This document shows, piece after piece, positions 45,101 to 63,065 of a stretch of 64,000 nucleotides of DNA. Under the pieces are notes generated by a model. It saw only the letters and a program-made list of their open reading frames with translations, was not told where the DNA came from and did not search any database. Source of the stretch: a bacterium BMS3Abin08 (GTDB lineage Bacteria > Nitrospirota > Thermodesulfovibrionia > Thermodesulfovibrionales > JdFR-85). Each line of letters opens with the position of its first letter. The first letter of the stretch is position 1. The position numbers were made by a program, and so were the translations under genes. Location of the stretch: contig BDTA01000015.1 in the NCBI GenBank assembly GCA_002897935.1, positions 17,735-81,734 on the forward strand, in the 5' to 3' direction.

Positions 45101-45130
45101 TTAAATCCTGCTTCAATGTTAAAATATCGC

Positions 45131-47608: not shown

Positions 47609-48138
47609 CAGACAACCTCTAATGACGTGTTGATCGGTACAGGCCGTGCCAAAGTCGTCCCCACAGGCGAGGTCTTTACGACATGCTCATGCAGCTCCTT
47701 CAGGGCTTCCGGAGTTGCGTCACTCTTGAGCTTTACACGGGCCGTAACCGACTTATAACCGGGAAGTTTGTCCATGTTGAGATCCTCGGGGGCTTCTAAA
47801 CCGAGAAACCCTGGAAGGTCGATATCGCCTTCAAGTTCAATATGTATCCCGTCAAGCTTTATACCCCTTACCGCGGCGTTCATGGCATAGCCGATGGCAA
47901 GACAGGCTCCATAGGCCTGAAGTACAACCTCCACAGGATTGGCAGCGGTGTCCGTGCCGCACAGCATTTCCGGCTCGTCAAACTGATAAGTAAAGTCCCT
48001 TGAAGACGTCTCTACCTTGAAGCCGCCCTTCCATTCTGCACTTGCCTTCCAGAGGGTCCTTCCCTCTTCCCAGTTACCTTTTACATGCTCAACAACCTGC
48101 ATCAGTTTCTCTGTCTCCAACCCGTTGATTACCGGCAT
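47608..48138 (-). CDS. OsmC-family protein
   Basis: About 176 aa. PVEVVLQAYGACLAIGY and LHEHVVKTSPV patterns of the OsmC/Ohr fold. RBS AAGGAGG. Confidence 0.75.
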   Translation of the reverse strand: MPVINGLETEKLMQVVEHVKGNWEEGRTLWKASAEWKGGFKVETSSRDFTYQFDEPEMLCGTDTAANPVEVVLQAYGACLAIGYAMNAAVRGIKLDGIHIELEGDIDLPGFLGLEAPEDLNMDKLPGYKSVTARVKLKSDATPEALKELHEHVVKTSPVGTTLARPVPINTSLEVV

Positions 48139-48178: not shown

Positions 48179-48193
48179 GCAATTTATGTACCA
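48179..48193 (-). promoter_or_regulatory. sigma-54 promoter candidate
   Basis: The minus strand reads TGGTACATAAATTGC (GG-N10-GC). It lies about 40 nt upstream of the ATG at 48138, with AAGGAGG in between. Confidence 0.5.
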
Positions 48194-48360: not shown

Positions 48361-48405
48361 ATTGCAATATGCAGTCATGGCAGGGGGTAAATTGCATATT
48401 GCAAT
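48361..48405. promoter_or_regulatory. perfect 13-bp inverted repeat (ATTGCAATATGCA-N19-TGCATATTGCAAT), candidate enhancer/operator
   Basis: Read directly from the sequence. It overlaps the stop codon of the GAF-type sigma-54 activator and lies about 170-225 bp upstream of the 48179-48193 promoter. Confidence 0.35.
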
Positions 48406-49904
48406 TATGTTTCAGGAGCGAGGTTATACTTCTTCAGCTTCCTCCACAGTGTTGTCGGGTTAATTTCCAGGATACCGGCGGCCCTCTTTCTCTCTCCCTT
48501 TGTCAGGCTTAACACCTTCAATATGTGTTCCCGTTCCATGCCCTCGAGTGACCAGTCTATAACCACCTCCCCCTTTGAAATTATACCCGATGGTAAATCC
48601 TCTACCCCGATATAGCTGCTCTCGGATACAATAATTGCCCTCTCGATGGTATTCTCAAGCTCCCTTATATTACCGGGCCAGGTATGTTTCAAAAGTACTT
48701 CAAGGGCATCATCGGAAACTCCCCTGATTTTTTTATTCAGCTTTTTGTTGTACTTATGTATAAAGTATCTGCTCAGCAGGGGCACATCCTCCCTTCTCTC
48801 CCTGAGGGGTGGCAGAACGATATTGATAACGTTCAGCCTGTAAAAGAGGTCTTCACGGAATGTGCCCTTCTTGATGGTCTCGTGTAAGTCCCTATTGGTT
48901 GCAGCGACAATCCTGACATCGATGGTGGTCGGAGTAGTGGAGCCCAGCTTAAAAAAAGTCCTCTCCTGAAGAAACCTCAACAACTTTAGTTGCAGGTTGA
49001 TACTCATTGAATTGACCTCATCGAGAAACACCGTCCCTCCCTCGGAAACTTCAAGCAACCCCTTCTTGTCACAATCCGCACCGGTAAAGGCGCCTTTAAG
49101 ATACCCAAACAGTTCTGACTCAAGCAGGGACTCAGGCAATGCCGCACAGTTTATGGGTATAAACGGCTTATCGGCCCTTATGCTATTGAAGTGTATCGCC
49201 CTGGCAATCAACTCCTTTCCCGTCCCGCTCTCCCCATATATGAGTATGCCGGATGGAACATTAAGGACCTTTCTGACAAACCTCAATACCTCATTCATCT
49301 TTTCACTGTTTGTTATAATCCCCTCAAAGTTATGATATTTCCGCCTGCTGTCCATCTCTTTCTTTACATCTTCATGTATGCGTGCATTCTCAATTGAAAG
49401 TCCTATGGGAACTGCGGCGGCGCGGAGAATATCCAGAATCTCCTGGTCACATCTGTACGGTGTATGAGTTATGGCGCAAAGGACACCCACTACCTTGCCC
49501 TGTGCAGAGAGGGGAATTCCTGCATAAAACTCCATCCCCTCTCTCTTAAGAGATATCCTTGTAAAACGTTCATCCTCTGAAGCCCTCTCCTGAATAATAA
49601 CCTCACAGTTGTACTGGGCAATATTTCCACACATACACTCTCCCACCCTCACCTTCTCCTCGGTAAGATCTTTTATAACCTCGTTGGAGAGGTTCCAGTA
49701 GGTCACGGGTATCATCTCCAGCGTATCATCGTCTATAACATAAATCACCCCTGCATCAACACCCATAAACTCGATAACCTTCTGAAGGACATCATCAAGA
49801 ATCCCCTTGAGATTAAGGGACTTGCTGACTGTCAGGGCGATCTCGTAGAGGATGGACAGTTTTTTGTTCTGTTTTTCGTAGAGGTTGAGGATATCATCGG
49901 GCAT
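48405..49904 (-). CDS. sigma-54-dependent transcriptional activator with N-terminal GAF domain
   Basis: GAF-like N-terminal domain, GESGTGKE, intact GAFTGA, C-terminal Fis-type HTH. No receiver domain. Confidence 0.9.
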   Translation of the reverse strand: MPDDILNLYEKQNKKLSILYEIALTVSKSLNLKGILDDVLQKVIEFMGVDAGVIYVIDDDTLEMIPVTYWNLSNEVIKDLTEEKVRVGECMCGNIAQYNCEVIIQERASEDERFTRISLKREGMEFYAGIPLSAQGKVVGVLCAITHTPYRCDQEILDILRAAAVPIGLSIENARIHEDVKKEMDSRRKYHNFEGIITNSEKMNEVLRFVRKVLNVPSGILIYGESGTGKELIARAIHFNSIRADKPFIPINCAALPESLLESELFGYLKGAFTGADCDKKGLLEVSEGGTVFLDEVNSMSINLQLKLLRFLQERTFFKLGSTTPTTIDVRIVAATNRDLHETIKKGTFREDLFYRLNVINIVLPPLRERREDVPLLSRYFIHKYNKKLNKKIRGVSDDALEVLLKHTWPGNIRELENTIERAIIVSESSYIGVEDLPSGIISKGEVVIDWSLEGMEREHILKVLSLTKGERKRAAGILEINPTTLWRKLKKYNLAPET

Positions 49905-49946: not shown

Positions 49947-49961
49947 TGGCAGCATTCTTGC
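49947..49961 (+). promoter_or_regulatory. sigma-54 promoter candidate
   Basis: TGGCAGCATTCTTGC fits TGGCAC-N5-TTGC. It lies about 120 nt upstream of the ATG at 50081. Confidence 0.55.
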
Positions 49962-50080: not shown

Positions 50081-50605
50081 ATGAAGATTTACGACGACTC
50101 AAAACTGAAAGAGGTAGTCTCCAGGAGAATGGCATTTTTTAAGCGGAAACCCGAAGCCGCCGTTTATAAGCCAAGGGTCTCCTCACGTCATGTCTACGGA
50201 CTCTATACGGAAACAGATGTCCGTAAACATACGGTTAAATCAGACTATGCAGAGGCTGCAGGAGGTACGGATGAGGCCCCGAACCCCATAGAACTCCTTC
50301 TGGCCGCCCTGGCTTCCTGTATTGAAGCCGCCTTTTATGAATTCGCCCTTCATGAGGGAATAACCGTTAATTCCCTCTCTGTCGAGGTCGAGGGAAGACT
50401 GGACCTGAGAGGCCTCTTCATGGTTGATGACTCGGTTCCGGCCGGATTCAGTGACATAAGCTATTCTCTCAATATCAACTCCCCCGATGAGGAGGAAAAG
50501 GTTAAGGCCCTTGCTGAAAAGGTGGTTGCCCACTGTCCGGTAGTGGACAGCCTTAAAAGACCGCTTTCTTTAACCGGTAACATAAACATAACCAGGGAGG
50601 AATGA
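50081..50605 (+). CDS. OsmC-family protein
   Basis: PNPIELLLAALASCI and VVAHCPVVDSL are the two conserved-Cys contexts of OsmC/Ohr. Its stop overlaps the metF start. Confidence 0.75.
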   Translation: MKIYDDSKLKEVVSRRMAFFKRKPEAAVYKPRVSSRHVYGLYTETDVRKHTVKSDYAEAAGGTDEAPNPIELLLAALASCIEAAFYEFALHEGITVNSLSVEVEGRLDLRGLFMVDDSVPAGFSDISYSLNINSPDEEEKVKALAEKVVAHCPVVDSLKRPLSLTGNINITREE

Positions 50606-51468
50606 TGCAGATATCCGAGATACTCAACACAAGGGACAGGGGAATTTCCTTTGAGTTTTTCCCGCCTAAGACCGGCGAAGGAATGTCGGCGTTAATGAAG
50701 GTTGCAGTTGAACTGGCTGAATACGACCCGCTGTATGTATCCGTAACATACGGGGCTGGAGGCAGCACCCAGGACAGAACGCGCAAGCTGCTCATCAAGC
50801 TGAAAGAGGAGACGGACCTTACGGTGATGTCCCACCTCACATGTATCGGGGCTACGGGGGAGATGATGGATTCCCTTCTCAGGGACTACAGGGACAACGG
50901 CATCGACAATATCCTTGCACTCAGAGGAGACCCGCCTCAGGATGCGGAGGACTATGATCCCGCAACAGGCGAATTCAGATACGCAAAGGACCTTGTTGAA
51001 TTTGTCGGAAAGTACAATTATTTTTCTATCGGTGTGGCTGTTTATCCCGAGGGTCACCAGGAAGCCCCCTCGCTTGAGGCAGACATAGAGTACACGAAGA
51101 TGAAGGTTGATGCCGGAGCCGATTTTGCAATTACACAGATGTTCTTTGACAACAGATACTTCTTCGACTTCCTTGAAAGGGCACGGAAGAAGGGTATCAA
51201 TATCCCCATCCTTCCGGGTATCATGCCGATAACCGACCTTGTTAGGATAAAGAAGTTTTCCTCCTTCTGCAGGACTACGATTCCTTCCCGGATCGAGGAG
51301 ATGATGTCGGGCGTCCTTGACAAGCCTGAAGAGATGAGGAAGATAGGGACCGAACTTGCGATCAGGCAATGCAAAGAACTGCTCGACAGCGGGGTCAAAT
51401 ATCTCCATTTCTATACCATGAACAAGTCGGAGGTTGTTAGTGAGATTATCAGGGCATTAAGGGTCTAA
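50602..51468 (+). CDS. metF: methylenetetrahydrofolate reductase
   Basis: ISFEFFPPKT, VTYGAGGST, LRGDPP and QMFFD motifs. Confidence 0.9.
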   Translation: MMQISEILNTRDRGISFEFFPPKTGEGMSALMKVAVELAEYDPLYVSVTYGAGGSTQDRTRKLLIKLKEETDLTVMSHLTCIGATGEMMDSLLRDYRDNGIDNILALRGDPPQDAEDYDPATGEFRYAKDLVEFVGKYNYFSIGVAVYPEGHQEAPSLEADIEYTKMKVDAGADFAITQMFFDNRYFFDFLERARKKGINIPILPGIMPITDLVRIKKFSSFCRTTIPSRIEEMMSGVLDKPEEMRKIGTELAIRQCKELLDSGVKYLHFYTMNKSEVVSEIIRALRV

Positions 51469-52407
51469 AGGACCGGCCGGGGCAGCTACCGCTTTGCCGA
51501 TAGAGGGGGCTTTCAATGATTCCCCTATAACGACAAGGCGGCTGTCTGTGACGGGTTTGCCGAAAGGCTCTGTTTCAACCCGGCCGGAAGACAGGTCAAA
51601 CCGGAAAGGGCCTTTGTCGGTCTGTACCAGGGCCTTTGCCCTGAATACCTTCCCGAATGAACCCGTTTGCATGTTCCTGAATAATTCCCTGACCGTATTA
51701 AAGGAAACATTATCCTTGAGTTTCAGGGAGACCGTTTCACAATGGATGACATGTCCGGTGTGGCTGCTGATTATCCTGTTGTCCCTTGCAACTTCGGGAA
51801 GCGGCTCGCTCAATGCCGCCCTGACGGTGGGAATGATGATAGCCCGCTCATTCATTCCCTCGACCAACTCTATTGTATCCAACACTTTTTCCTCTTCAAC
51901 GGTGTCGGTCTTGTTTATGAGGATTATATCGGAATTAATGATCTGGTCTTCAAAGAACTTACCGTACATCCCGGATTCATAGAGTTCAACGAATTCGCTC
52001 GAGTCCACTATTCCGACGACGGTTACAGGATTTACCTTTAACGAACCAAGTGCCTCAAGCACTCCCGAGGGCGATGCAACTCCGCTCGGTTCTATATAGA
52101 GGTGGTCCGGACGGAACTCCTCCGTTACCTCCCCGATTGTTCTGATGAGGTCGAACTTCAATGTACAGCAGACACACCCACTTGGAAGTTCAACCGCCTC
52201 GACACCGCCAACCGAGAGAACTTCTCCATCAATCCCTGTTTTGCCGAAGTCGTTAACAAGGACAACCACCTTTTCCTGTGAATCCTTCAATACGTTCTGG
52301 ATAAAGGTTGTCTTCCCGGAGCCGAGCATACCGCATACAATGGTTGTTTTCACCTCATATTCCTTTCCCCGTATTTCCAGCATGTTGCATTTTATACAGG
52401 TCCTCAA
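51457..52407 (-). CDS. CobW/G3E-family GTPase metallochaperone
   Basis: GMLGSGKTTF P-loop, the GCVCCT metal motif, and a C-terminal CobW_C-like domain. Converges on metF with a 12-nt overlap. Confidence 0.8.
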   Translation of the reverse strand: MRTCIKCNMLEIRGKEYEVKTTIVCGMLGSGKTTFIQNVLKDSQEKVVVLVNDFGKTGIDGEVLSVGGVEAVELPSGCVCCTLKFDLIRTIGEVTEEFRPDHLYIEPSGVASPSGVLEALGSLKVNPVTVVGIVDSSEFVELYESGMYGKFFEDQIINSDIILINKTDTVEEEKVLDTIELVEGMNERAIIIPTVRAALSEPLPEVARDNRIISSHTGHVIHCETVSLKLKDNVSFNTVRELFRNMQTGSFGKVFRAKALVQTDKGPFRFDLSSGRVETEPFGKPVTDSRLVVIGESLKAPSIGKAVAAPAGPLDP

Positions 52408-52604
52408 TCTTAAGCAATTTTCATTCCTTTAACCTGATAATCCCCTAAGGTCCCGCCACAGGATTCTCACCCCGGTTGCCCTATATTGTATGGGTGAAGG
52501 GGTGAGGAAAAATTCCCCAACGGTTGCGGTATATTTTCCCGGTCCCTGCTAAAAAAATCCGCCCCCTGTAGGAATCTTGGCGGATTCCCGTGCTTTTTTT
52601 ATCC

Positions 52605-52619
52605 TGGCATCATAGTTGC
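52605..52619 (+). promoter_or_regulatory. sigma-54 promoter candidate
   Basis: TGGCATCATAGTTGC fits TGGCAC-N5-TTGC. It ends only 12 nt before the ATG at 52632. Confidence 0.55.
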
Positions 52620-52631
52620 TTACCTAATAAC

Positions 52632-53027
52632 ATGTCGCATTTACTTATCAGTTCCCATAACCCCTTGCTGATCAAATCAATCTATGGGATGCTGAGGGAT
52701 ATCGGCTATTCCATCGACATCACAGATCATCCGGCAGATGCGGTAAGGCAGGTTTTCAATAATAAGTACGACGCCGTGATACTCGATTCACGGGACGTTG
52801 GCCTTACAGCTTCGGATGCATCGGAAATTATCGGTAGTATCTCCCCCGATACCAGGGTGGTTATTTTAGGTGAAGCGCAGGACAAGACCACTGCAACTAC
52901 ATTCCCGAATTCAGATCAGCTCGATGATCTGAAGACGTATCTGTCCGAGGTATTTGATCATAACAACCGTAATCATAATAAAGGAGGACTATATGACACC
53001 AAAAGAGACTATTCTAAAAGCCTTTGA
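52632..53027 (+). CDS. possible degenerate receiver-like protein (uncertain ORF)
   Basis: MSHLLISSHNP...YDAVILDSRD...VVILGE resembles a CheY-like fold in which the acidic pair is replaced by SH. There is no RBS. The start coincides with the predicted sigma-54 transcription start. Overlaps the next gene by 35 nt. Confidence 0.3.
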   Translation: MSHLLISSHNPLLIKSIYGMLRDIGYSIDITDHPADAVRQVFNNKYDAVILDSRDVGLTASDASEIIGSISPDTRVVILGEAQDKTTATTFPNSDQLDDLKTYLSEVFDHNNRNHNKGGLYDTKRDYSKSL

Positions 53028-54021
53028 GGGAGGTAAACCGGAAAGGGTGCCGGTGACCCTGTTCGGCGGAGGTATGTGGAGCATCAATAGCTGGGGTACC
53101 ACCTTTGAGGAACTCTCAAAGGACCCTGACAGGATGACGCAGATGTTGGTTGATATGAGTGAAAAACTCCAGTGTGATATCGTTTATGCGGGATCGGGGT
53201 ACAACAACTTCCATGCCTCGGCACTCGGGGGGGAGATCAAGTTCCGTGAAGTCGGCGCACCAGACCTTGTAGCCCCTCTTGTAAGTTCGGAGGAGGACCT
53301 CGCAGGACTGAAGATAGAAGATATTGAGAAAGATGAAACGATAAACGTGGTTTATGAGGCGACCAGGAAAACAAAGAAACAGATCGGGGATAAATATGTG
53401 GTAACCATGACCGCATGGGGGCCCTTTACCCTTGCTGCACGGTTCGTAGGCGAAGAGGATATGATGAAGGCTACCTTCAAGAAACCGGCTCTTGTGGAAA
53501 AGGTCACTGAATTTGCTACGGATCTGCTTATTCACCTGTTTGAACCGCTTGTTGACGATGGCACTATCGATGTGATAAGTCTCGCGGACCCGACTGCATC
53601 CGGCGACCTGATCTCCAAAAAGCAGTTCGATAGATTTGTGGTTCCCGCCCTTAAAAGATTTACCGACTGGGCAAAGGCAAAAAAAGCCCATACTCTCCTC
53701 CATATCTGTGGTAATACGAGCGACCGCCTCGAACTCTTCCCTGAAACCGGTGCAAGCTGTATCAGCCTTGATCACAAGACGGACATAGCAAAGGCAAAGG
53801 AAGCACTTTACGGGAAGATGTGTTTTGCCGGAAATGTTGATCCCGTTGCCGTCATGCTCCGGGGCAGTGTCGGGGATATTGAATCCACCTGTAAAGATAT
53901 CATAGGAAGGGCCGGCACGGACGGTGCCTTTGTATTAATGCCGGGTTGTGATATTCCACCAAATGTTCCCTATGAGAATATTCAACAGTTTGTAAATATT
54001 GCACGGCAGTGGAGACTTTAG
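52993..54021 (+). CDS. UroD-family methyltransferase (MtaA/MtbA/CmuA-like, corrinoid-dependent)
   Basis: RBS AAAGGAGG. 342 aa. ERVPV near the N-terminus, a HICGNT-type Zn-ligand region and MPGCDIPP near the C-terminus, as in methylcobamide:thiol methyltransferases. Confidence 0.8.
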   Translation: MTPKETILKAFEGGKPERVPVTLFGGGMWSINSWGTTFEELSKDPDRMTQMLVDMSEKLQCDIVYAGSGYNNFHASALGGEIKFREVGAPDLVAPLVSSEEDLAGLKIEDIEKDETINVVYEATRKTKKQIGDKYVVTMTAWGPFTLAARFVGEEDMMKATFKKPALVEKVTEFATDLLIHLFEPLVDDGTIDVISLADPTASGDLISKKQFDRFVVPALKRFTDWAKAKKAHTLLHICGNTSDRLELFPETGASCISLDHKTDIAKAKEALYGKMCFAGNVDPVAVMLRGSVGDIESTCKDIIGRAGTDGAFVLMPGCDIPPNVPYENIQQFVNIARQWRL

Positions 54022-54233
54022 CTGAAAGGTGACAGGCCGCAGACAATAGCCGGCAGGCTGTGCAGACCGTCCGTTGACCATCTACACCCTGTCACCCACA
54101 ATAAAAGCATGGGAGGTGATAAGTGCAAAAGCTGGTTGCAATCCCAAACCGGGGAGGTTAAGTTATGGGAATTTTAGACGGGTTTAAACGATTTCTGGCC
54201 ATAGGGTCAGAGAACACTCAAAAGGAGGAAAGC

Positions 54234-54680
54234 ATGTCGGAAGAAAAAAAAATGACTCCTGAAGAAGCAAATGAGTACATGAACGAGAAGATGCTTTTTA
54301 CACCGAGGATGTTTAAGGTCATCAATCAGTTGAACCCTGAAGGAGGAAAGACATTTGCAGATTTCTACAATTCCTTCTGGAAGGACGGGGCTCTCTCAAG
54401 GAAGGTAAAGGAACTGATCTTCATGGCGGGTGGCGTTGCCTATATGTCACCACGTTGTATCATTCATGTCTATCCGGCGGTAAAGGCCGGTGCAACCGTA
54501 GAGGAGGTCTTTGAGGCAGCATCGATAGGATGTCTTCTCGCAGGCTTTGTTCCAAACGGACCGGGCATACCCTATGCCTTTGAATATGCAGTAAAATGTG
54601 TCGATCTTGCCCAGAAGATAGAGAAGGGTGAGGATTGGGAGTACCTGCCGGAGCCGAAATTCGATCACGGGGTATTTTAA
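54234..54680 (+). CDS. carboxymuconolactone decarboxylase/AhpD-like family protein
   Basis: ALSRKVKELIFMAGGVAYMSPRCIIH matches the CMD-domain helix pattern with a Cys/His pair. RBS AAGGAGG precedes the ATG at 54234. Confidence 0.65.
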   Translation: MSEEKKMTPEEANEYMNEKMLFTPRMFKVINQLNPEGGKTFADFYNSFWKDGALSRKVKELIFMAGGVAYMSPRCIIHVYPAVKAGATVEEVFEAASIGCLLAGFVPNGPGIPYAFEYAVKCVDLAQKIEKGEDWEYLPEPKFDHGVF

Positions 54681-54928
54681 CAGTCTTTGAACTGAGGTCA
54701 ATTAATGATACTTATACCTGTTCTGAATACATAGATTAAAAATCACGTGCACTTGACTGGGAGTATCGGGGTATCTCGCGGGCCGTGTATCTCCGTCATA
54801 TTCTCCGGTACTCCTCGTTTTTTGCCGGTGGAAGATTTCAATTAAACAGGTAATGCAATGGCTCAAGAAAATATCATCTTAAGCAAGTCAATACAATTAA
54901 ATACGGTCAATCCCGAAAGGAGCAGTTG

Positions 54929-55897
54929 ATGTTCAGATTAGAAACCAAACAGAGGGTATTCGATTTCAACGGAATCAGTATAGGGGGACAAGTCGGCGAA
55001 AACCCTCCCCTTCTGATTGCTTCAATGTTTCACAACAAGGACAGGATACTTCAAGACAGGAAGTCAGCAAAGTTCAACCGTGAGAGGGCCGTGGAGCTGA
55101 TCCGTAAACAGGAAGAACTAAGCAAATCTACAGGAATCCCGGCAATGGTTGCAATGGTCGCGAACACACCTGAGGAGGCTCAGGCTTACATAGACTTCTA
55201 CCTGGAAACTACGGATATGCCCTTTGGTATCGATATGTGGGTGGCTGAGAAGAGAGCAAAGGCAACAGAGTATGTCGCTAAACTCGGGGTCCAGGATAAA
55301 TTCCTTTACAACAGCATAACCCCTTGGGACAAGGACATCAAGGGCCAGGTCGGGAGGCTGAGGGATCTCGGGATAAGGCATGTTGTTGTTCAGGCCTTTG
55401 ATGATCAGGATCAGACGCCGGCGGGACGGCTCAAGTCTCTTGAGGCAATCCTGGCCCAGGGGGCGGATGCCTTTGACACTATCATCGTTGATACCTCCGT
55501 AATGAACCTGCCCTCCACGTCCTTCTCAATTCTGGCAAACAGGTTGATTAAGGAAAAGCTTGGACTGCCCTGTGGAGGAGCCTATTCCAACGGCACACAT
55601 ATGTGGAAGGAATCAAAAGAGATGTGGGGGCTCGATGGCTTCAAGGCAATGGATGCCGTTGCCCAGGGGATGTCTACCGCTATATGGAGTGACTTCAATT
55701 TCTACGGACCTATTGTCACTGCACAGAGGATCTTTCCTGCCGTAGCAACCGCTCATATACTGATGTCCACATTCATGTACGACGAAACAGGGAAAATTCC
55801 GGATAACGACAATCTCCCCATCAGAAAATTCTTTCCCGATTTTATCGTCAAACTCCTCGAAGGAGGGGCAAGGAAAAAAGGAACGTCCAAAAAATAA
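54929..55897 (+). CDS. MtrH-like (pterin-binding) methyltransferase
   Basis: FDFNGISIGGQVGENPPLLIASMFH is an N-terminus typical of the tetrahydromethanopterin S-methyltransferase subunit H family. About 322 aa. Confidence 0.8.
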   Translation: MFRLETKQRVFDFNGISIGGQVGENPPLLIASMFHNKDRILQDRKSAKFNRERAVELIRKQEELSKSTGIPAMVAMVANTPEEAQAYIDFYLETTDMPFGIDMWVAEKRAKATEYVAKLGVQDKFLYNSITPWDKDIKGQVGRLRDLGIRHVVVQAFDDQDQTPAGRLKSLEAILAQGADAFDTIIVDTSVMNLPSTSFSILANRLIKEKLGLPCGGAYSNGTHMWKESKEMWGLDGFKAMDAVAQGMSTAIWSDFNFYGPIVTAQRIFPAVATAHILMSTFMYDETGKIPDNDNLPIRKFFPDFIVKLLEGGARKKGTSKK

Positions 55898-55933
55898 ATC
55901 CAAATATAAAACAATCTGAAAGGAGAACAGCAA

Positions 55934-56968
55934 ATGGCAGTCACAACAATGAATTCCAGGGAACGGATCCTTAAACTCTTCAATGGTGAGAAGGTTGACA
56001 GGGTCCCTTGCTTCAGCGGTATGGGAAATGTAACCGCTGAGGGGCTGAAAACCCTCGGGTACAACTTCGCCGCCTCCCACCTTGACGCCAAGATGATGGC
56101 TGAGGCGGCTGCAACCACCTACAAGCTCTACGGGTTCGAATGTGGTGTTGTACCTTTTGATCTCTGTATCGAAGCCGAGGCCCTTGGGTGTGAGATAAAT
56201 GTATATGCACATTCCGAGGACATACTCTACCCTACAATAAAGGAAAAGGTAATCCATAACGAAGAGGAGATGGAGATCACTATTCCCCCCGACCTCGTCA
56301 CACGCGGAAGGGTTCCCCTGATGAAGGAGACCATCAAATTACTGAAAAACGAGATCGGCAATGACGTGCCTGTCGGCAGCTACGTGCTCGGGCCATTCAC
56401 CCTTGCAGGACAGATCATGGAACTCAACGACCTGCTAAAACTCTCCTTCAAGAAACCCGACAAGGTCGGAAAACTGCTCGATGTCCTGGCCGATGCCATT
56501 GTCCTTATTGCAAAGGAATTCGAAAGTGCCGGGAGTGATTATGTTACGGTGAGGGAGATGGGGGCAACGTCCGATGTGTTAAGCCCCCGGGGGTTCAAGA
56601 ACCTCATCCTTCCCTATCTCAAAAAGATCTTCTCTGAAGTTAAAGGCAATACGGTCCTTCACATCTGCGGGAAGACAAACGACATCGTACCTTTCATGGT
56701 TGAATCCGGTGCAAAGGCAATCAGTGTGGACCAGAAAAACGACCTTGTGGAAACCCGCAAAAAAATCGGGAGCAACGCACTCGTATTCGGCAATTACGAC
56801 CCTTACAATGTCCTTGTAACCGGAGATGAGGAGATTATCCGGACGACAATGAGAAAATGTATAGACGATGGCGCCAGTGCTGTCTGGCCGGGCTGTGATA
56901 TATGGCCGACGGTTCCACCGGAAAACATGAAAATAATGATGGACGAAATAATCAATTACGGAGGTTAA
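55934..56968 (+). CDS. UroD-family methyltransferase (second MtaA/CmuA-like paralog)
   Basis: MNSRERILKLFNGEKVDRVPCF, HICGKT and WPGCDIWP. A paralog of 52993-54021. Confidence 0.8.
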   Translation: MAVTTMNSRERILKLFNGEKVDRVPCFSGMGNVTAEGLKTLGYNFAASHLDAKMMAEAAATTYKLYGFECGVVPFDLCIEAEALGCEINVYAHSEDILYPTIKEKVIHNEEEMEITIPPDLVTRGRVPLMKETIKLLKNEIGNDVPVGSYVLGPFTLAGQIMELNDLLKLSFKKPDKVGKLLDVLADAIVLIAKEFESAGSDYVTVREMGATSDVLSPRGFKNLILPYLKKIFSEVKGNTVLHICGKTNDIVPFMVESGAKAISVDQKNDLVETRKKIGSNALVFGNYDPYNVLVTGDEEIIRTTMRKCIDDGASAVWPGCDIWPTVPPENMKIMMDEIINYGG

Positions 56969-56971
56969 GCC

Positions 56972-57667
56972 ATGGTATCAGAAGAAAAAAAACAGGAACT
57001 ACTCGAAAAACTCAAAAACGGAGTTGTCCAGTACGATGAGGACGGCGTCAAGGAGGCTGCACAGGAGGTGCTCGATGTCGGGATGGATGTAAATGAGGCC
57101 ATCTTTGACGGTCTCGTCTCCGGAATGGAAGAGGTTGGCAGGCTCTTTGAGGCACAGGAATATTTTGTCCCCGAGCTGCTGATGTGCGCCGATGCACTTT
57201 ACGCCGGACTTGATATTCTCAAACCACACGTTGGGAAGATGGATCTCGGAATGAAGGGATCGGTTGTAATAGGGACGGTCGAGGGTGATGTCCACGATAT
57301 CGGGAAAAACATCGTTAAGATGATGTTTGACGTTGCAGGTTTTGAGGTTTATGACCTGGGCAGGGACGTCCCTCTCGATAAGTTTGTAGAGGAACAGTTA
57401 AAGACGGATTCCGATCTCGTGTGTCTCTCGGCCATGATGACCACTACCATGGTCGGCATGCAGAAGATAATCGACACCCTGAGAGAGAAGAACCCCAATG
57501 TAAAAATCATGATTGGTGGAGCCCCTGTTTCCAGGGAAATTGCCGACAAGTGGGGGGCTGACGGGTATGCAGCTGATGCAAGCAATGCCCTCCAGGAAGC
57601 CATCAGCATGGTCGCATCTCTGAAGAAAATGAGGATAGAGGCAGAGGCAAACAAAGTTGAATCCTGA
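56972..57667 (+). CDS. corrinoid (cobalamin-binding) protein, MtaC/MtbC-like
   Basis: B12-binding-2 helical cap, then GTVEGDVHDIGKNIV (DxHxxG) and SAMMTTT...GGAP Rossmann motifs. Confidence 0.9.
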   Translation: MVSEEKKQELLEKLKNGVVQYDEDGVKEAAQEVLDVGMDVNEAIFDGLVSGMEEVGRLFEAQEYFVPELLMCADALYAGLDILKPHVGKMDLGMKGSVVIGTVEGDVHDIGKNIVKMMFDVAGFEVYDLGRDVPLDKFVEEQLKTDSDLVCLSAMMTTTMVGMQKIIDTLREKNPNVKIMIGGAPVSREIADKWGADGYAADASNALQEAISMVASLKKMRIEAEANKVES

Positions 57668-58340
57668 TTCATTAAAGGACCTGCTGTTGAGTTCCGGCGC
57701 CACCCTGACGGGTATAGGTGACGTGACCGAGGCCCTTTCCGGCGATATCCGGCACCTCACGAGAGGCATTGCGATAGCGGTCAGAAAGGACCTGAATCGG
57801 GACACCGTGGAGTTTCTACTCGGCCTCCAGGGATTAATTGAAGCCTGGTTGAGGAAGAGGAACTACAGGTTTCTTTCCATTCCGCCCGACTCCGACAGGA
57901 GAAATGGAAAGTTTATCTCAAGGTTATATGAGTTTTTCAGTCATAAGACAGCCGCTACATGTGCCGGTCTTGGATGGATCGGGAAAAACGGGCTGATAAT
58001 CAACAGCAGGTACGGACCGAAGCTCTCCTGGGCCACGGTGCTTACAGACACACCATTTATGACCGACAGGCCGATTACAAGGTCTCTCTGCGGCAATTGC
58101 AACCTCTGTGTCAGACACTGTCCTTCCAGTGCCCTGACCGGTACTTCATGGTCGATCGGGGAGCCCTTTAGTGAGATTGTTATTTACAGCAGGTGCAGTT
58201 CCCTGAAGAAAAAACGGACGGTCTTTAATAACAAGCCGAACTGTGGACTCTGTATTAACATATGTCCTTACGCAAGAAAGGTTTACAAGAACAACAAAAG
58301 GGAAAGAATATACCTGAAGGAATCACGATCCTGTCAGTAA
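57657..58340 (+). CDS. QueG/reductive-dehalogenase-superfamily-like 2x[4Fe-4S] protein (short form)
   Basis: SHKTAATCAGLGWIGKNGLIINSRYGPKLSWATVLTD resembles the QueG/RdhA core. CGNCNLCVRHCP and CGLCINICPY cluster motifs. TTG start overlapping the corrinoid protein stop. Confidence 0.55.
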   Translation: MNPDSLKDLLLSSGATLTGIGDVTEALSGDIRHLTRGIAIAVRKDLNRDTVEFLLGLQGLIEAWLRKRNYRFLSIPPDSDRRNGKFISRLYEFFSHKTAATCAGLGWIGKNGLIINSRYGPKLSWATVLTDTPFMTDRPITRSLCGNCNLCVRHCPSSALTGTSWSIGEPFSEIVIYSRCSSLKKKRTVFNNKPNCGLCINICPYARKVYKNNKRERIYLKESRSCQ

Positions 58341-58350
58341 AGAAATTGAT

Positions 58351-58424
58351 CTTGTTCATGGCGCATGCCGTGAACAAAGGGTCCCAGGCCACCCCTCCGC
58401 CCCCTCCATAAAGGCCTGGGACCC
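58351..58424 (+). other. two consecutive strong hairpins in the intergenic spacer
   Basis: CTTGTTCA-tggcgcatgccg-TGAACAAG, then GGGTCCCAGGCC-N22-GGCCTGGGACCC. No U-tract follows. Confidence 0.5.
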
Positions 58425-58454
58425 ACCCTAAACTCTTAAAAAAGGAGGTTTTTA

Positions 58455-60428
58455 ATGAATAAATTCAAAGTGATCTTTCAGCCCTCGGGCAGAAGAGGCG
58501 AGATTGAAGAAGGCAAGACCCTTCTTGAAGCAGCACAGGCCCTCGGGGTTGATATCGAGGCTGTCTGCGGTGCAAAAAAGATCTGTGGTAAGTGCAAGGT
58601 CAGGATAGAAGACGGGTACTTTGAAAAGGACAACATCGATTCGAGCATGGACCATCTCTCTCCCTTTACGGACGATGAGAGTGAACATCTGAAACCCGAG
58701 GACGGCACGGGGATGAGGCTTGCATGTGCTGCTGAAATTCATGGTGATGTAAAGGTATTCGTTCCGGAGCGGTCAAGGGCCGGGAAACAGATTGTAAGAA
58801 AGGCTGCCAAGGAACTCATTATTAAACTCGACCCCGCAGTGAAGAAATACAATGTCAATCTGCCTGCCCCGCAACTGCATGATATGACTGAAGGCGACAT
58901 GGAGAGGGTACTGAAGTTCATGAAAGATGAATATGGACTCCCAGGTCTCGTTTTTGACTATGAGCCGCTTAAAAACCTCCAGGACACCTTAAGGAAAGGT
59001 GAATGGAAGTCAACTGTTACCGTCTGGATGGACAAAGAGATCATCAAGATTGAACCCGGTTTTGTCGAGCCCTCCTATGGTCTTGCCGTAGATGTCGGAA
59101 CAACGACCGTGGTCGGATATCTCTGCGACCTGAACACGGGGAGGGTTGTAAGTACGGAATCCATGATGAACCCACAGGTCCCGTACGGTGAGGACGTCAT
59201 GTCAAGAATAACCTATGCTATGACAAACCCGGATGGCCTCGAAAAGATGCAGAATGCAATAATTGAAGGACTGAATGAGATAATAGACCGTACATCCTCA
59301 GATCTCAGGACGAACGGTAAAAACGGAGGCAATGTAATAGTTGACCTGACCATCGTCTTCAATACCGCTATGCATCACATCTTCCTCGGGTTCAACCCGG
59401 TATACATAGGCCGGTCACCCTTTATACCTGCTGTACAGCGTTCGCTTAATATAAAGGCCCGTGACCTCGGGCTCAGGATCAACCCCGCTTCCTACGTACA
59501 TGTCCTTCCTATAGAGGCAGGTTTTGTCGGGGCTGATAATGTGGGAGTCCTTATTGCCGAAGAACCCTACAATCAGGATGAAACGGTTCTTATAATCGAT
59601 ATCGGGACCAACGGCGAGCTTCTGCTCGGGAATCGAGAGAGGGTCTGCTCCACATCCTGTGCTACGGGACCGGCCTTTGAGGGTGCCCAGATAAAGTTCG
59701 GTATGCGTGCCGCACCCGGCGCTATCGAGAAGATAAAGATCGATCCTGAAACAAAGGAATGTTTATACAAGGTGATCGGCAAGGCCGACTGGCATACCCA
59801 GCTTCAGGAAGTGAACGCCAAGGGGATATGTGGATCCGGCATAATCGATGCGGTCGCCGAGATGTTCAAGGCCGGCATTATTGATAAATCGGGAAGATTC
59901 AACATTGACCTCGATACCATCAGGGTCAGACTCGGGTCGGACGGCAAACCTGAGTATGTCCTTGCCTGGGCCGAAGAGACATCCATCGGAAGCGATATCA
60001 CCATCACACAGGCAGACGTGAGGGCGCTTCAGCTTGCAAAGGGAGCCCTCTATGCAGGAGTAAAGCTTATGATGCAGAAAATGGGAATCAAGAGGCTTGA
60101 CAGGGTTATCCTTGCCGGTGCCTTTGGAAGTTTCATAGACAAGGAATCAGCCCTTGCCATCGGGATGTTCCCCGACTGTGATGCAGAGAAGGTCTATGCC
60201 GTGGGTAACGCTGCCGGAGACGGTGCAAGGATGGCGCTCCTCAACAGGGACAAACGCATTGAAGCGGACGAGAGGGCAAGATGGGTGGAATTTGTTGAGA
60301 TTGCGGTAGAACCCGCCTTTGAAAAGGAGTTCATGATGGCCATGCATTTCCCTCATATGAAGGACAAGTTTCCCAACCTCAAGACACTACTTGAGAAGAA
60401 GAATCTCCCGGTAACCATAAAGGGATGA
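58455..60428 (+). CDS. ATP-dependent reductive activase of corrinoid proteins (RACo/RamA-like; 2Fe-2S ferredoxin + ASKHA/DUF4445)
   Basis: N-terminal plant-type ferredoxin (CGAKKICGKCKV...LACA), then an ASKHA ATPase (LAVDVGTTTV, IDIGTNGE, GICGSGIID). Confidence 0.85.
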   Translation: MNKFKVIFQPSGRRGEIEEGKTLLEAAQALGVDIEAVCGAKKICGKCKVRIEDGYFEKDNIDSSMDHLSPFTDDESEHLKPEDGTGMRLACAAEIHGDVKVFVPERSRAGKQIVRKAAKELIIKLDPAVKKYNVNLPAPQLHDMTEGDMERVLKFMKDEYGLPGLVFDYEPLKNLQDTLRKGEWKSTVTVWMDKEIIKIEPGFVEPSYGLAVDVGTTTVVGYLCDLNTGRVVSTESMMNPQVPYGEDVMSRITYAMTNPDGLEKMQNAIIEGLNEIIDRTSSDLRTNGKNGGNVIVDLTIVFNTAMHHIFLGFNPVYIGRSPFIPAVQRSLNIKARDLGLRINPASYVHVLPIEAGFVGADNVGVLIAEEPYNQDETVLIIDIGTNGELLLGNRERVCSTSCATGPAFEGAQIKFGMRAAPGAIEKIKIDPETKECLYKVIGKADWHTQLQEVNAKGICGSGIIDAVAEMFKAGIIDKSGRFNIDLDTIRVRLGSDGKPEYVLAWAEETSIGSDITITQADVRALQLAKGALYAGVKLMMQKMGIKRLDRVILAGAFGSFIDKESALAIGMFPDCDAEKVYAVGNAAGDGARMALLNRDKRIEADERARWVEFVEIAVEPAFEKEFMMAMHFPHMKDKFPNLKTLLEKKNLPVTIKG

Positions 60429-60517
60429 GGAAGGGTGTCGGGTTGAGGTTTGTATAAACACGGACGATCAGGGCAGCCGTATAAAAACCGCTTACCTGAT
60501 TCATGAATGGATAAAGG

Positions 60518-60835
60518 ATGACAAAGGCAAATATTAATCCCGGCATATGCGGTCTTAAAACCAGCGTGGAGATTGAAAAAAAAGAGGGCAAGAGATATGC
60601 CCTCTCTGTCAAGTCCGATTGCGAGATGGTGGAAAAACTCGCAAAGGAGATAGGTGAACTCGACTTCACGGATGCCTTTAAGCGCATAACCGAAAATCCG
60701 GTTTACCGGAAAGGCTCAACATGTCTCAAACATGTCTCCTGTCCCGTGCCCTGTGCAATACTGAAGGCATTCGAGGTTGAGGCGGAGCTTGCACTCCCCA
60801 GGAACGTAACGATAGAACTCATAAGGCAGGAATAG
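60518..60835 (+). CDS. small cysteine-containing hypothetical protein
   Basis: 105 aa. Cys at PGICG, SDCEM, STCLKHVSCPVPC. No family recognised. Confidence 0.45.
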   Translation: MTKANINPGICGLKTSVEIEKKEGKRYALSVKSDCEMVEKLAKEIGELDFTDAFKRITENPVYRKGSTCLKHVSCPVPCAILKAFEVEAELALPRNVTIELIRQE

Positions 60836-60845
60836 ACCGTTAATT

Positions 60846-61100
60846 AGAGTCTGTGTATAAATTACGGTTGTTAGTCATTCCCGCAATCCCGAATGCATTC
60901 GGGAGTCGGGAATCCTTTTTAAAGAACGATTCCGGACAAGCCGGAATGACAGAAAAACGACATCTACATGTATTTGTCATTCCCGCAAGTGAAGCGCGTC
61001 GGGAATCCAGTCTTTTCAATAAGTTCTGGATACCCGACTACAGACTTCGGGCATGACAAAAATAAAAAACGATAACTGTTCGACTTTATACACGGACTCT
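60846..61100. repeat. composite MITE-like element (two fused units)
   Basis: AGAGTCTGTGTATAAA ... TTTATACACGGACTCT, 255 bp, enclosing four hairpin modules. It generates the spurious ORFs 60853-61056 and 60964-61155. Confidence 0.75.
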
Positions 61101-61116
61101 GATTATGGATTAGCCG

Positions 61117-61183: not shown

Positions 61184-61873
61184 ATGGGTATAATCCTTTC
61201 TTTCATTACATACGTACTCGTTATAATTGCATGCCTTAAGGGCATTTCCAACATCATGATTCTCTGTGGCAGACGTGATCTGAAAAATGATCTTTCTATT
61301 ACAAAAAAAAAGCTTACCGGCGGAGTCTTCCTGCAGGGTTTATTCGACATTCTATTCATGGGCAGGCTCTTCCGTGTAAACAAGTTGCTATGGATAGGGG
61401 AATGGACGTTTCATGTATCATTCATACTCACTTTAACCGGCCATCTAAGATACATACTCTATCCCGTACCTAAGTGGGCTGTTGTTATGAACTGCATTGG
61501 GAAATATGCGGGTATTCTACTCCCCCTGTCCCTGTTGTTCGTCCTGTTTGTACGGTTGTCGCTTTCTGAAAGAAGCGACTATGTATCGCCGAGAAATTTC
61601 TTTCTCATCCTGCTTATACTCATCCTGGGCACAACGGGTGTAATCATGAGATTCTTTATAAGACCCGACATAGTCGGCATCAAGAACTATATTATGGATT
61701 TATTAACATTCAATCCGGGGGACCTGCCTTCAGGGTCTCTTTTTGTGATTCACTACAGCCTCTTTCTGGTGTTGCTCCTTTATCTCCCGACGCATATACT
61801 GACCGCACCCTTCATTATTTTTGAGTCAAGGAAGCGGACATCAACAACGAAAATTATTGAATATGATGAATAG
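61184..61873 (+). CDS. NarI/DsrM/HdrE-like dihaem cytochrome b membrane subunit
   Basis: Five predicted TM helices with His pairs in the positions expected for NarI-type haem ligands (FHVSF..GHLRY and VIHYSL..PTHIL). Confidence 0.7.
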   Translation: MGIILSFITYVLVIIACLKGISNIMILCGRRDLKNDLSITKKKLTGGVFLQGLFDILFMGRLFRVNKLLWIGEWTFHVSFILTLTGHLRYILYPVPKWAVVMNCIGKYAGILLPLSLLFVLFVRLSLSERSDYVSPRNFFLILLILILGTTGVIMRFFIRPDIVGIKNYIMDLLTFNPGDLPSGSLFVIHYSLFLVLLLYLPTHILTAPFIIFESRKRTSTTKIIEYDE

Positions 61874-63065
61874 GAAACCATTTACAGAATCACTTTCAGG
61901 CAAACAGCTTTTCGAGGTGAAGGCTTGTACCGAGTGCAGGGAATGCCTTGCTTACTGCCCTGTGCAGGAAGTCACTAACAACCCTGCCATTTCCCCGCCG
62001 GAGAAGCTCCGCATCTTCAAGAAACTTATTGATGAAACAGAGGGGCTGAAATCCAGGTTCTTCGGCAGAAAAGACATAGACCGAAAGGTCCTTGAAGGCC
62101 TCACAAGGGCGGTTTTTGAATGTACGACATGCGGTGTCTGCGGCGAGGTCTGTCCCGTCGGGATAAACACCCAGAGGTTATGGCCGATACTCAGGAAGGA
62201 GATGGTCAAACATGGTACAGGTCCTATCGGGCAGCAAGCCGAAATTCCCGGTGCAATCATGAATACCGGCAACCCTTACAACAAGCCGCGGGAGGAAAGA
62301 TACTCACCGTGGTTGCCGGATAGTATCGAGATAGTCGAGAATGCTGAAATAGCATATTACGCCGGCTGCACAGGCGCCTACCAGGCCCGGCCGATGGTGA
62401 AAGGCGACGTGCTGGTTCTGGATGCCGTCGGCACGCCCTTCACAATGCTTGATGCCGAAGAAGAGGTCTGTTGCGGTTTTCCTCTGTTTATAACGGGACA
62501 GCATGAACAACTTGAATCACTCGTAAAAAGGCTTATTCCTGCTTATAAAAAAAAGGGTGTTAAAACCCTCATCTGCTCATGCCCATGCTGTGTAAACATG
62601 ATGGCCCGGGAATGGCCGTCATATTACGGCGATACCCTCCCCTTCAGAATAACCCATATCACCCAGTATGTCTCCCACGCCCTTAGGGAGGGGACCCTTA
62701 AGATAAAAAGAGCGCTGAATGAGAGGTTAATCTATCATGACCCCTGCTACTTAAGCAGGGGTGTAGGGGTGATTGAAGAACCAAGGGAGGTCTTGAGGCA
62801 TATACCGGGCGTGGAGCTTCTTGAGTTTGACCACAACAGGCGTCTCTCCCGGTGTTGCGGTGCAGGTGGTGCCGCAAAAAACATCTTTCACGAAAACGCT
62901 GTGGCCATAGCACGTCTAAGCATTGATGAGGCGGTCGAAAAGGGAGCGGATAAACTGGTGCTCGGTTGCCCCGCCTGTTACGAGAAGGTAAATGAGGCAA
63001 TGCAGGACCATGTAAGAAAGGTTCAGATCGTGGATATTATGGAACTGCTTTCAACGGTGATTTAA
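61863..63065 (+). CDS. HdrD/DsrK-like iron-sulfur protein (2x[4Fe-4S] + two CCG domains)
   Basis: CTECRECLAYCP and CTTCGVCGEVCP. CCG motifs EVCCGFP...CPCC and SRCCGAGG...GCPAC. The start overlaps the upstream stop. Confidence 0.85.
   Translation: MMNRKPFTESLSGKQLFEVKACTECRECLAYCPVQEVTNNPAISPPEKLRIFKKLIDETEGLKSRFFGRKDIDRKVLEGLTRAVFECTTCGVCGEVCPVGINTQRLWPILRKEMVKHGTGPIGQQAEIPGAIMNTGNPYNKPREERYSPWLPDSIEIVENAEIAYYAGCTGAYQARPMVKGDVLVLDAVGTPFTMLDAEEEVCCGFPLFITGQHEQLESLVKRLIPAYKKKGVKTLICSCPCCVNMMAREWPSYYGDTLPFRITHITQYVSHALREGTLKIKRALNERLIYHDPCYLSRGVGVIEEPREVLRHIPGVELLEFDHNRRLSRCCGAGGAAKNIFHENAVAIARLSIDEAVEKGADKLVLGCPACYEKVNEAMQDHVRKVQIVDIMELLSTVI

Follow-up and report, generated by a model that had tools for sequence, protein, structure and literature searches.

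Coenzyme M (CoM) is considered a cofactor of archaea that metabolise methane or alkanes, the sole bacterial exception being a few aerobic alkene oxidisers that reach it by an unrelated route (PMC9457059, PMC12068725). The soluble CoM methyltransferase systems of methanogens (MtaA/MtbA/MtsA, RamA) comprise an MtaA-type enzyme with a His-Cys-Cys zinc site, a DxHxxG corrinoid protein and an ATP-dependent activase, with a COG0523 protein as neighbour, and are found with cysteate synthase and ComDE and with an HdrD-like protein that has a membrane cytochrome b as partner. Cytoplasmic CmtA and MtsD/F/H are reportedly among the CoM methyltransferase systems of Methanosarcina acetivorans. In non-methanogenic anaerobes, type 1 mlp gene clusters join several MtaA-like UroD proteins with His-Cys-Cys sites to a corrinoid protein and a RACE/RACo activase, sometimes near a COG0523 gene, and a role in methyl-sulfur or methyl-selenium metabolism has been proposed for them (PMC10418091, bioRxiv 2023). 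Here we describe an operon of the bacterium BMS3Abin08 (Nitrospirota, Thermodesulfovibrionia; GenBank assembly GCA_002897935.1, contig BDTA01000015.1, positions 17,735 to 81,734; this stretch of 64,000 nucleotides is referred to as the window) that shares these features with both kinds of system and whose closest published kind, by gene content, is the type 1 mlp cluster. It encodes a sigma-54-controlled corrinoid methyl-transfer system which, in our estimate, has an even chance of working with thiols and of having its own CoM supply. The joining of a corrinoid thiol methyltransferase system to a putative CoM supply and an HdrDE-like module suggests a methyl-sulfur metabolism in bacteria. We found no description of it in the literature, nor of this cluster or of methanogen-type CoM genes in Nitrospirota. 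Dozens of uncultured Nitrospirota species share the arrangement, a gene set that a specialist would not expect outside the methane-metabolising archaea.

Genes were identified from a listing of open reading frames and by profile searches of the window's proteins (Pfam, and NCBIfam/TIGRFAM with curated cut-offs; Table 1). All the genes named in a preliminary description, which had been made from the sequence alone, proved to be real, with strong profile matches and with coordinates that held exactly or to within a few bases. A receiver-like gene, the first of the methyltransferase operon, had been missed, and the unit had been closed too early, at position 60835, since the operon runs on along the same strand through genes for a NarI/DsrM-like cytochrome, an HdrD-like protein and cysteate synthase. 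The nine core genes encode, in order, the receiver-like protein, UroD1, a CMD/AhpD-like protein, an MtrH-like methyltransferase, UroD2, the corrinoid protein, a short QueG/RdhA-like Fe-S protein, a RACo-type activase and the DUF6951 protein. A single operon thus holds the three components of such methyltransferase systems, namely a DxHxxG corrinoid protein (the motif is present as D-V-H-D-I-G), a pterin methyltransferase and an ATP-dependent activase. The best PDB match of the MtrH-like protein is 8z9u_B, and it also matches 6sj8, the methylcorrinoid:tetrahydrofolate methyltransferase of D. hafniense.

Relatives of UroD2 number 2906 at E < 1e-10, of which the best 120 are 74-100% identical and carry, where organism names are given, mostly those of Nitrospirae/Thermodesulfovibrionales. 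Among genomes scanned at one per GTDB species, 184 loci encode a UroD2 relative, and the best 80 were surveyed by tblastn. These 80 all belong to uncultured metagenome-assembled genomes (MAGs), nearly all labelled Nitrospirota or Thermodesulfovibrionia, including Ca. Sulfobium; one Rokubacteria and one Betaproteobacteria are the outlier labels. The Nitrospirota species that carry the cluster come from groundwater, sediments, peat and hydrothermal sulfide deposits. Core genes were counted only at loci long enough to judge, and at these the order and strand are unchanged throughout (53/53 for the upstream genes and 51/51 for the downstream ones), the MtrH-like gene being found by tblastn in 52 of the 53. 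A chimeric assembly containing archaeal DNA was considered and rejected because about 40 independent MAGs show these genes in the same arrangement and on the same strand.

Several proteins had been singled out earlier as unusual extras. Three of them, the CMD/AhpD-like protein, the QueG/RdhA-like protein and the 105-residue cysteine protein now assigned to DUF6951, are core genes across the related loci; the OsmC and DsrE proteins are variable neighbours, as are MetF, FolD and CobW. An alignment of orthologs shows an invariant C98-x-x-H101 and C145 in the CMD/AhpD-like protein, and the QueG/RdhA-like protein has eight invariant Cys residues, sufficient for two [4Fe-4S] clusters. The DUF6951 protein keeps ligand-type residues at C11, C35, H72 and C75. 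Its structural model (mean confidence, pLDDT, 73), behind which stands a homolog search that gathered 6 proteins only, gave Foldseek matches to IscU/SufE/SufU with probability up to 0.96 and E about 0.08, and so hints at a sulfur-transfer or cluster-carrying role, which we regard as a lead and not a result. No mention of DUF6951 was found in the literature searched. The only archaeal homolog found, in Ca. Methanofastidiosa (46% identity; L095/L096 6973-10321), is a divergent neighbour of GlcD-like and CCG-domain proteins and of HdrABC/MvhD-like genes.

UroD1 and UroD2 were classed by curated profile cut-offs, zinc ligands and pairwise scores, and their zinc sites bear on the type of substrate. 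M. mazei MtaA (4ay7), the methylcobalamin:CoM methyltransferase, is the sole non-UroD structure in the PDB matched by both proteins (1.1e-51 for UroD2 and 1.7e-27 for UroD1). The zinc ligands of MtaA, a His-x-Cys motif and a distal Cys, align with H243/C245/C321 of UroD2, invariant in 80 orthologs, and with H237/C239/C319 of UroD1, invariant in 61. A His-Cys-Cys site is the mark of S/Se-methyltransferases in the UroD superfamily, whereas O-demethylases replace one or both Cys residues (PMC10418091, Kountz and Balskus); the chloromethane enzyme CdmB is metal-free. The invariant sites therefore argue against UroD1 and UroD2 being O-demethylases, and neither protein has a carboxylate in place of a Cys or lacks the metal site. 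Thiol or methyl-sulfur chemistry had been preferred from the outset over methoxy-aromatics or quaternary amines, and this preference is supported by the zinc sites and by the genes for CoM synthesis or sulfonate import at 48 of 51 loci (see below). The enrichment in OsmC and DsrE proteins on which it had been founded is a weak basis, since neither kind of gene belongs to what is conserved in the cluster.

These sites also weigh on a comparison with methoxyaromatic O-demethylases (Mto/Odm/Vdm/Mtv-like) and halomethane systems (mec, cmu or cdm-like), whose overall makeup of UroD-family methyltransferase I (MT I), pterin methyltransferase II (MT II), corrinoid protein and activase is the same. 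The Mto system (MtoB1/B2-MtoC-MtoA-MtoD) and the bacterial O-demethylases likewise have two UroD-superfamily MT I paralogs and an MtrH-like MT II (acting with tetrahydromethanopterin or tetrahydrofolate) together with corrinoid protein and activase in one operon, and the MtrH-like protein found here is of the type of MtoA and MtgA; published work assigns subgroup III MtrH-like proteins to organisms without CoM synthesis or use. The mec (anaerobic dichloromethane), Cmu and Cdm (chloromethane) systems share, in addition to the methyltransferases, corrinoid protein and activase, a small DUF protein and a two-component regulator. However, the zinc site of the present enzymes points to sulfur and not to oxygen, with His-Cys-Cys in both UroD proteins and no carboxylate-substituted or metal-free site, unlike CdmB, and UroD2 falls within the MtaA/CmuA family by curated cut-offs. 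The kinase is of PAS/GAF type, where the mec cassette has the PocR kinase MecA, and there is no counterpart to the cation transporter MecJ. The mec, Cmu and Cdm systems belong, by description, to another phylum and have neither sulfonate nor HdrD-like genes, and an O-demethylase or halomethane system would leave the sulfonate and CoM genes unexplained. We consider such a function very improbable.

The two UroD proteins share just 28% identity with each other. UroD1 scores 193 bits against TIGR01463, below the cut-off of 235.4, and its best match outside its own orthologs reaches 36% identity, and by these measures of sequence it appears as a separate, divergent lineage. It is always accompanied by the CMD protein. 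The genomic context of its closest relative beyond the orthologs is archaeal and uninformative. Outside its own clade, UroD2 comes closest to bacterial clusters (Desulfotomaculum, Anaerolineae, Desulfobacterales and Dehalococcoidales, at about 55% identity).

Downstream of the DUF6951 gene a spacer of 349 bp, in which a MITE-like (miniature inverted-repeat transposable element) insertion sits, separates it from the NarI/DsrM-like gene; the same spacing is about 20 bp at locus L005. The best NCBIfam model for the HdrD-like protein is TfrB, a subunit of the CoM/CoB thiol:fumarate reductase (190 bits, below 385), and its membrane partner matches NarI and DsrM weakly. Since the window ends within the cysteate synthase gene, the sequence beyond was taken from near-identical contigs (L011-L013). 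On L011 the full-length cysteate synthase scores 482.6 bits on TIGR03844 (cut-off 324.9) and is followed by a fused ComDE sulfopyruvate decarboxylase whose alpha domain scores 183 bits (cut-off 147.95). This exact ComDE protein is annotated in NCBI under a Nitrospirae MAG, and both domains of the ComDE protein of locus L007 lie above their cut-offs (beta 230 and alpha 166 bits). Further on, the near-identical contigs carry a TauE-family exporter and an Ssu-like ABC transporter on the opposite strand.

Among the 51 loci with at least 9.5 kb of downstream sequence, 41 carry cysteate synthase and/or ComDE. The HdrD-like gene is found together with these genes at 40 loci and alone at one, cysteate synthase/ComDE is found alone at one, and nine loci have neither. 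At six of these nine an orthologous SsuABC importer lies directly after the DUF6951 gene (SsuA, TIGR01728, 193 bits against a cut-off of 163.5). In total, genes by which a C2 or aliphatic sulfonate could be made or imported (cysteate synthase/ComDE, SsuABC or both) stand beside the methyltransferase genes at 48/51 loci, and the remaining three run into unrelated genes. A more distant lineage (L097, 58% GC) keeps the CMD, UroD1, DUF6951, RACo, corrinoid protein and HdrD/NarI genes, with SsuABC embedded within the methyltransferase operon, NarI/HdrD downstream of it, and the MtrH-like protein and UroD2 naturally fused in a polypeptide of 662 residues. At 12622-19394 of this locus the methyltransferase genes are followed by genes for a Rieske protein, cytochrome b and c-type cytochromes and then by NarI/HdrD, which places the HdrD-like enzyme there inside a module of the respiratory chain. 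The idea that the HdrD-like pair is exclusive to CoM synthesis is weakened by L097, which has the pair together with an importer.

Methyl transfer among tetrahydrofolate, CoM and a second thiol is the best reading of this gene set. The sequences establish the gene identities, their conserved linkage, the thiol-type zinc sites and the sigma-54 promoter, whereas CoM as the thiol, the part played by the HdrD-like pair and the direction of transfer are inferred. The RACo-type activase would keep the corrinoid protein as Co(I), probably aided by the small two-cluster Fe-S protein, and the MtrH-like enzyme would exchange methyl groups between methyl-tetrahydrofolate and the corrinoid protein. UroD2, as an MtaA-type zinc enzyme, would carry methyl groups from the corrinoid protein to the CoM thiol or back; the case for CoM as the thiol of UroD2 seems to us evenly balanced. 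UroD1 and the CMD/AhpD-like protein would connect that corrinoid protein with a second partner, a thiol or thioether, for which sulfide, methanethiol/dimethyl sulfide (DMS) or another thiol are candidates. CoM would be made locally along the methanogen class II route, in which a housekeeping aminotransferase acts alongside cysteate synthase and ComDE and thiolation comes last, and lineages that lack cysteate synthase/ComDE would import it by the SsuABC-type transporter. For the HdrD/NarI-like membrane pair we infer a link to the quinone pool, either from a CoM disulfide or from the final reduction in making CoM. In Nitrospirota the pair co-occurs with cysteate synthase/ComDE, which favours the reductive step, and its association with the importer and the Rieske/cytochrome b module in L097 favours quinol reduction of CoM disulfide.

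Such a system would differ from those of methanogens in its bacterial host and in that methyl-CoM reductase is not in view, in its soluble MtrH-like pterin enzyme, which presumably acts with tetrahydrofolate, and in its RACo-type bacterial activase, as well as in its sigma-54 control and in the additional core genes for the CMD, QueG-like Fe-S, DUF6951 and receiver-like proteins. As in the alkene oxidisers (XcbA-E of Xanthobacter), CoM would be produced by a bacterium to serve one particular pathway; those aerobic hosts have entirely different enzymes, which follow a phosphoenolpyruvate route via XcbB-E, and use CoM for epoxide carboxylation and not for methyl transfer (PMC9457059).

Both the direction of transfer and the identity of the substrate bear on a second explanation, catabolic demethylation. 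UroD1 and UroD2 would then take methyl groups from DMS, methanethiol, methylmercaptopropionate or dimethylsulfoniopropionate, CoM would not be the acceptor, and the MtrH-like enzyme would pass the methyl groups to tetrahydrofolate for oxidation by MetF/FolD. The set of two UroD proteins, MtrH-like MT II, corrinoid protein and activase parallels MtoB1/B2-C-A-D, both zinc sites are His-Cys-Cys, MetF and sometimes FolD are adjacent, and catabolic operons are typically inducible through sigma-54 and two-component systems. Transfer from methyl-pterin to a thiol releases about 30 kJ/mol, and methanogens need an energy input for the reverse; the methionine synthase and Mtr reactions likewise run toward the thiol (about -30 kJ/mol). 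Methyl transfer from a thioether to tetrahydrofolate would thus be strongly endergonic, whereas the direction from methyl-tetrahydrofolate to thiol is exergonic and the system is soluble, so that this direction is the more likely. Catabolic demethylation would also leave the making or import of a sulfonate at 48/51 loci unexplained, and MetF is adjacent in just 10/41 loci, and we think it unlikely. The substrate had been proposed in the preliminary description to be a methylated sulfur compound or a thiol cofactor. A thiol cofactor fits better, since a methylated sulfur compound meets with uphill thermodynamics and leaves the C2 sulfonate without explanation.

A number of observations weigh against the assignment of CoM. 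UroD2 is just 31% identical to M. mazei MtaA and scores below the equivalog cut-offs (248 bits against 400 for MtaA_Meth and 186.5 against 600 for MtbA), so that it is the gene neighbourhood which points to CoM as its specific thiol. An identity of 31% is in the range of MtaA, MtbA and MtsA among themselves, and on CoM-methyltransferase models UroD2 scores 278/248 bits against 267/260 for the MtaA-like protein of the methyl-reducing methanogen Methanonatronarchaeum. The beta domain of ComDE on L011 is borderline, 2 bits short of its cut-off (219.5 against 221.5), and cysteate synthase and ComDE give sulfoacetaldehyde, which can lead to other sulfonates. COG1900/MMP16 (ComF; PF01837) was not seen in the annotated neighbourhoods of the loci, the genomes beyond these not having been searched. 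The HdrD-like protein tracks cysteate synthase/ComDE in Nitrospirota yet occurs without them in L097, which makes its role ambiguous, and the Desulfotomaculum locus L094 (UroD, corrinoid protein, RACo, MtrH-like, UroD2-like and DUF6951 genes) has no sulfonate genes in the part seen. The fate of methyl-CoM is the main gap in the CoM model: no methyl-CoM-consuming enzyme is encoded near the cluster, and we know of no role for methyl-CoM without methyl-CoM reductase.

In another explanation, cysteate synthase, ComDE and the HdrD-like protein would serve to make a different sulfonate derived from sulfoacetaldehyde (isethionate, taurine or sulfoacetate) or to handle sulfite, their linkage to the methyltransferase operon would have some other reason, and the thiol of UroD2 would not be CoM. 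The two enzymes account only for sulfoacetaldehyde, the gene for ComF is missing from the annotated neighbourhoods, TauE-family exporter genes are adjacent in the organism of the window, and ComDE also scores 219 bits on a phosphonopyruvate decarboxylase model. However, an aliphatic-sulfonate importer replaces the module in other lineages and is embedded in the L097 operon, from which it appears that the methyltransferases need the sulfonate itself. Zinc-thiolate methyltransferases require a thiol, and CoM is, to our knowledge, the only C2 sulfonate thiol. ComF may be dispensable, since sulfoacetaldehyde and sulfide give CoM without an enzyme and L-ASST can replace ComF (PMC12068725); a sulfide or L-ASST route to CoM is plausible in sulfidic habitats. 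We therefore give an alternative sulfonate product little credence.

A role in methyl-selenide or methyl-sulfide salvage akin to that of type 1 mlp, with the UroD enzymes demethylating methylselenol, dimethylselenide or small methyl-sulfur metabolites, is suggested by the same combination of several MtaA-like His-Cys-Cys enzymes, corrinoid protein and activase, which in type 1 mlp is linked to selenium use. The organism of the window appears to decode selenocysteine, having a probable selenocysteine peroxiredoxin with an in-frame TGA at the peroxidatic Cys, and its OsmC, CobW and CMD proteins match NCBIfam models named for (seleno)proteins. All of these selenium-family matches fall below cut-off, however, and type 1 clusters are without a tetrahydrofolate methyltransferase, whereas the MtrH-like gene is present here in nearly every locus. 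Type 1 mlp clusters also have no CoM synthesis, sulfonate import or HdrD-like genes and occur mostly in Firmicutes, and salvage would not account for the sulfonate genes and the HdrD-like pair. This explanation seems to us improbable.

If CoM is confirmed, the cluster would bring to light previously unrecognised methyl-sulfur chemistry in widespread anaerobes, provide candidate genes for corrinoid-dependent thiol methylation or demethylation in anoxic habitats, and possibly reveal a ComF-independent end to CoM synthesis. A wider proposal, which we put forward tentatively and regard as rather unlikely, is that Thermodesulfovibrionia make CoM by the methanogen route and use it as a methyl carrier without methyl-CoM reductase, in what would be a bacterial CoM/MtaA/MtrH-like/HdrD-like module. 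For example, methylated thiols might be formed from the C1 pool in an energy-linked manner while a quinone-linked HdrDE-like enzyme cycles CoM disulfide. In either case, finding mtaA, mtrH, comDE or hdrD in a metagenome would be no reliable sign that methanogens are present.

The control by sigma-54 that had been proposed earlier is borne out by matches to the -24/-12 element at the three expected intergenic sites, among 8 such matches across the window where 2.9 were expected. The element of the methyltransferase operon recurs at 54 of 55 related loci, some 390-400 bp ahead of UroD1 (background rate 0.048 per 800 bp), and the window contains two genes for enhancer-binding proteins. Orthologs of the NtrC-type regulator (57-70% identity) adjoin the cluster in 18/41 loci, and the PAS/GAF sensor kinase is a conserved neighbour in 16/41. 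Two direct repeats of CGGTTGCNNTATATT upstream of the operon's promoter are presumably candidate activator-binding sites. A perfect 12-nt inverted repeat (TTGCAATATGCA/TGCATATTGCAA, 48362-48404), between the OsmC and activator genes, is a further candidate activator-binding site. Scans for sigma-70 promoters and terminators gave results at chance level, and no Rfam riboswitch or other RNA family was found in 44-64 kb of the window.

Table 1. Positions in the 64,000-nucleotide window of the operon, its promoters and its neighbours, with the supporting matches (bits against cut-off where two scores are given; fractions are related loci).
Feature	Position	Strand	Evidence
NtrC-type response regulator (receiver, sigma-54 AAA+, HTH_8)	40776..42116	-	Pfam
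PAS/GAF sensor histidine kinase	42116..44590	-	Pfam GAF_2, HisKA, HATPase_c, PAS
SsuA-like periplasmic binding protein (NMT1_2)	45059..46036	+	PF13379 8e-08; TIGR01728 SsuA_fam 69 bits vs 163.5
DUF362 protein, two [4Fe-4S] motifs	46045..47154	+	PF04015 4.8e-50; in only 1 related locus
DsrE-like	47198..47608	-	PF02635 1.4e-14; 4/41 loci
OsmC-like, second copy	47608..48138	-	PF02566 2.1e-18; 6/41 loci
Sigma-54 -24/-12-like site, OsmC/DsrE unit	48179..48193	-	TGGTACATAAATTGC, 1 mismatch
GAF-domain sigma-54 enhancer-binding protein	48405..49904	-	PF00158 1.5e-68, GAF, HTH_8
Sigma-54 -24/-12-like site, OsmC-MetF	49947..49961	+	TGGCAGCATTCTTGC, 1 mismatch
OsmC-like	50081..50605	+	PF02566 9.5e-23; NF041052 83 bits vs 95; 17/41 loci
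MetF, methylenetetrahydrofolate reductase	50602..51468	+	TIGR00676 344.6 bits vs 293.7; beside cluster 10/41 loci
COG0523/CobW-type GTPase	51457..52383/52407	-	PF02492 1.7e-38; 25/41 loci
Two direct repeats, 48 bp apart	52473..52535	+	CGGTTGCNNTATATT; 70-130 bp upstream of operon's sigma-54 promoter
Sigma-54 -24/-12 promoter, methyltransferase operon	52605..52619	+	TGGCATCATAGTTGC
Receiver-like, 131 aa	52632..53027	+	weak PF00072 match 1.3e-4; tblastn orthologs 45/53 loci
UroD1, divergent MtaA/UroD-family zinc methyltransferase	52993..54021	+	PF01208 1e-64
CMD/AhpD-like	54165..54680	+	PF02627 6.3e-07; PDB AhpD 5dik 4.4e-08; 53/53 loci
MtrH-like methylcorrinoid:tetrahydrofolate methyltransferase	54929..55897	+	NF002142 348 bits vs 287
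UroD2, MtaA-type	55934..56968	+	PF01208 4.3e-74; NF004889 278 vs 244; TIGR01463 244.7 vs 235.4
Corrinoid protein	56972..57667	+	PF02310 + PF02607; TIGR02370 216.5 bits vs 215.3
Short QueG/RdhA-like Fe-S protein	57657..58340	+	PF13484; partial TIGR02486, TIGR00276 matches; 51/51 loci
RACo-type ATP-dependent reductive activase	58455..60428	+	PF14574 4.9e-98, PF17651, PF17650, Fer2
DUF6951, 105-aa Cys protein	60518..60835	+	PF22263 4e-32
MITE-like insertion	60841..61105	.	21-nt terminal inverted repeats, 90% complementary; internal repeats GTCATTCCCGCAA…GTCGGGAATCC
NarI/DsrM-like membrane b-type cytochrome (HdrE-like partner)	61184..61873	+	PF02665 0.0021; NF038037 DsrM 69 bits, below cut-off
HdrD-like Fe-S protein, two CCG domains	61863..63065	+	PF02754 4.6e-25; start = ATG at 61863, confirmed by exact-product match
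Cysteate synthase, N-terminal 306 aa, cut by window end	63082..64000	+	TIGR03844 361.9 bits vs 324.9

The CobW-type GTPase is a probable metal (zinc) chaperone for the methyltransferases, and a COG0523 subfamily is known beside corrinoid methyltransferase genes (MtaA/MtaB) (PMC2770081). Proteins of the type of the SsuA-like binding protein are found near the kinase in about 10 loci, and this protein is possibly a sensor partner. The sub-threshold matches of the OsmC, CobW and CMD proteins are to NF041052, NF041053 and NF041047, models named for (seleno)protein families, whose close accession numbers hint that the three also occur together elsewhere, as a selenoprotein neighbourhood.

Hydrogenase maturation genes (hypE, hypA, hypF and hypB-like, 36387-40779) adjoin the regulator genes of the cluster, and Hyp genes or a [NiFe] hydrogenase small subunit flank it elsewhere too (L005 1-2147; L007 20538-21035), so that the cluster may have a link to H2 metabolism. 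Further upstream, an oxidative-stress island (about 28000-36400) encodes a Fur-family regulator, two rubrerythrins, a flavodiiron (ROO-type) protein, rubredoxin, desulfoferrodoxin and a peroxiredoxin, together with a nitroreductase, an FMN reductase and a glutaredoxin. The peroxiredoxin (AhpC/TSA, 32489-33106, + strand) has its in-frame TGA at 32663-32665 (FTFV-TGA-ATEF), with a hairpin-forming stretch (GCTGCTCTGGCAGAGCAGT) downstream; it is probably a selenocysteine peroxiredoxin that gene callers have split into pieces of 58 and 130 residues. A trehalose synthesis block at 14129-21843 comprises a TreT-like glycosyltransferase and a fused OtsA/OtsB (18774-21005), followed by spermidine synthase.

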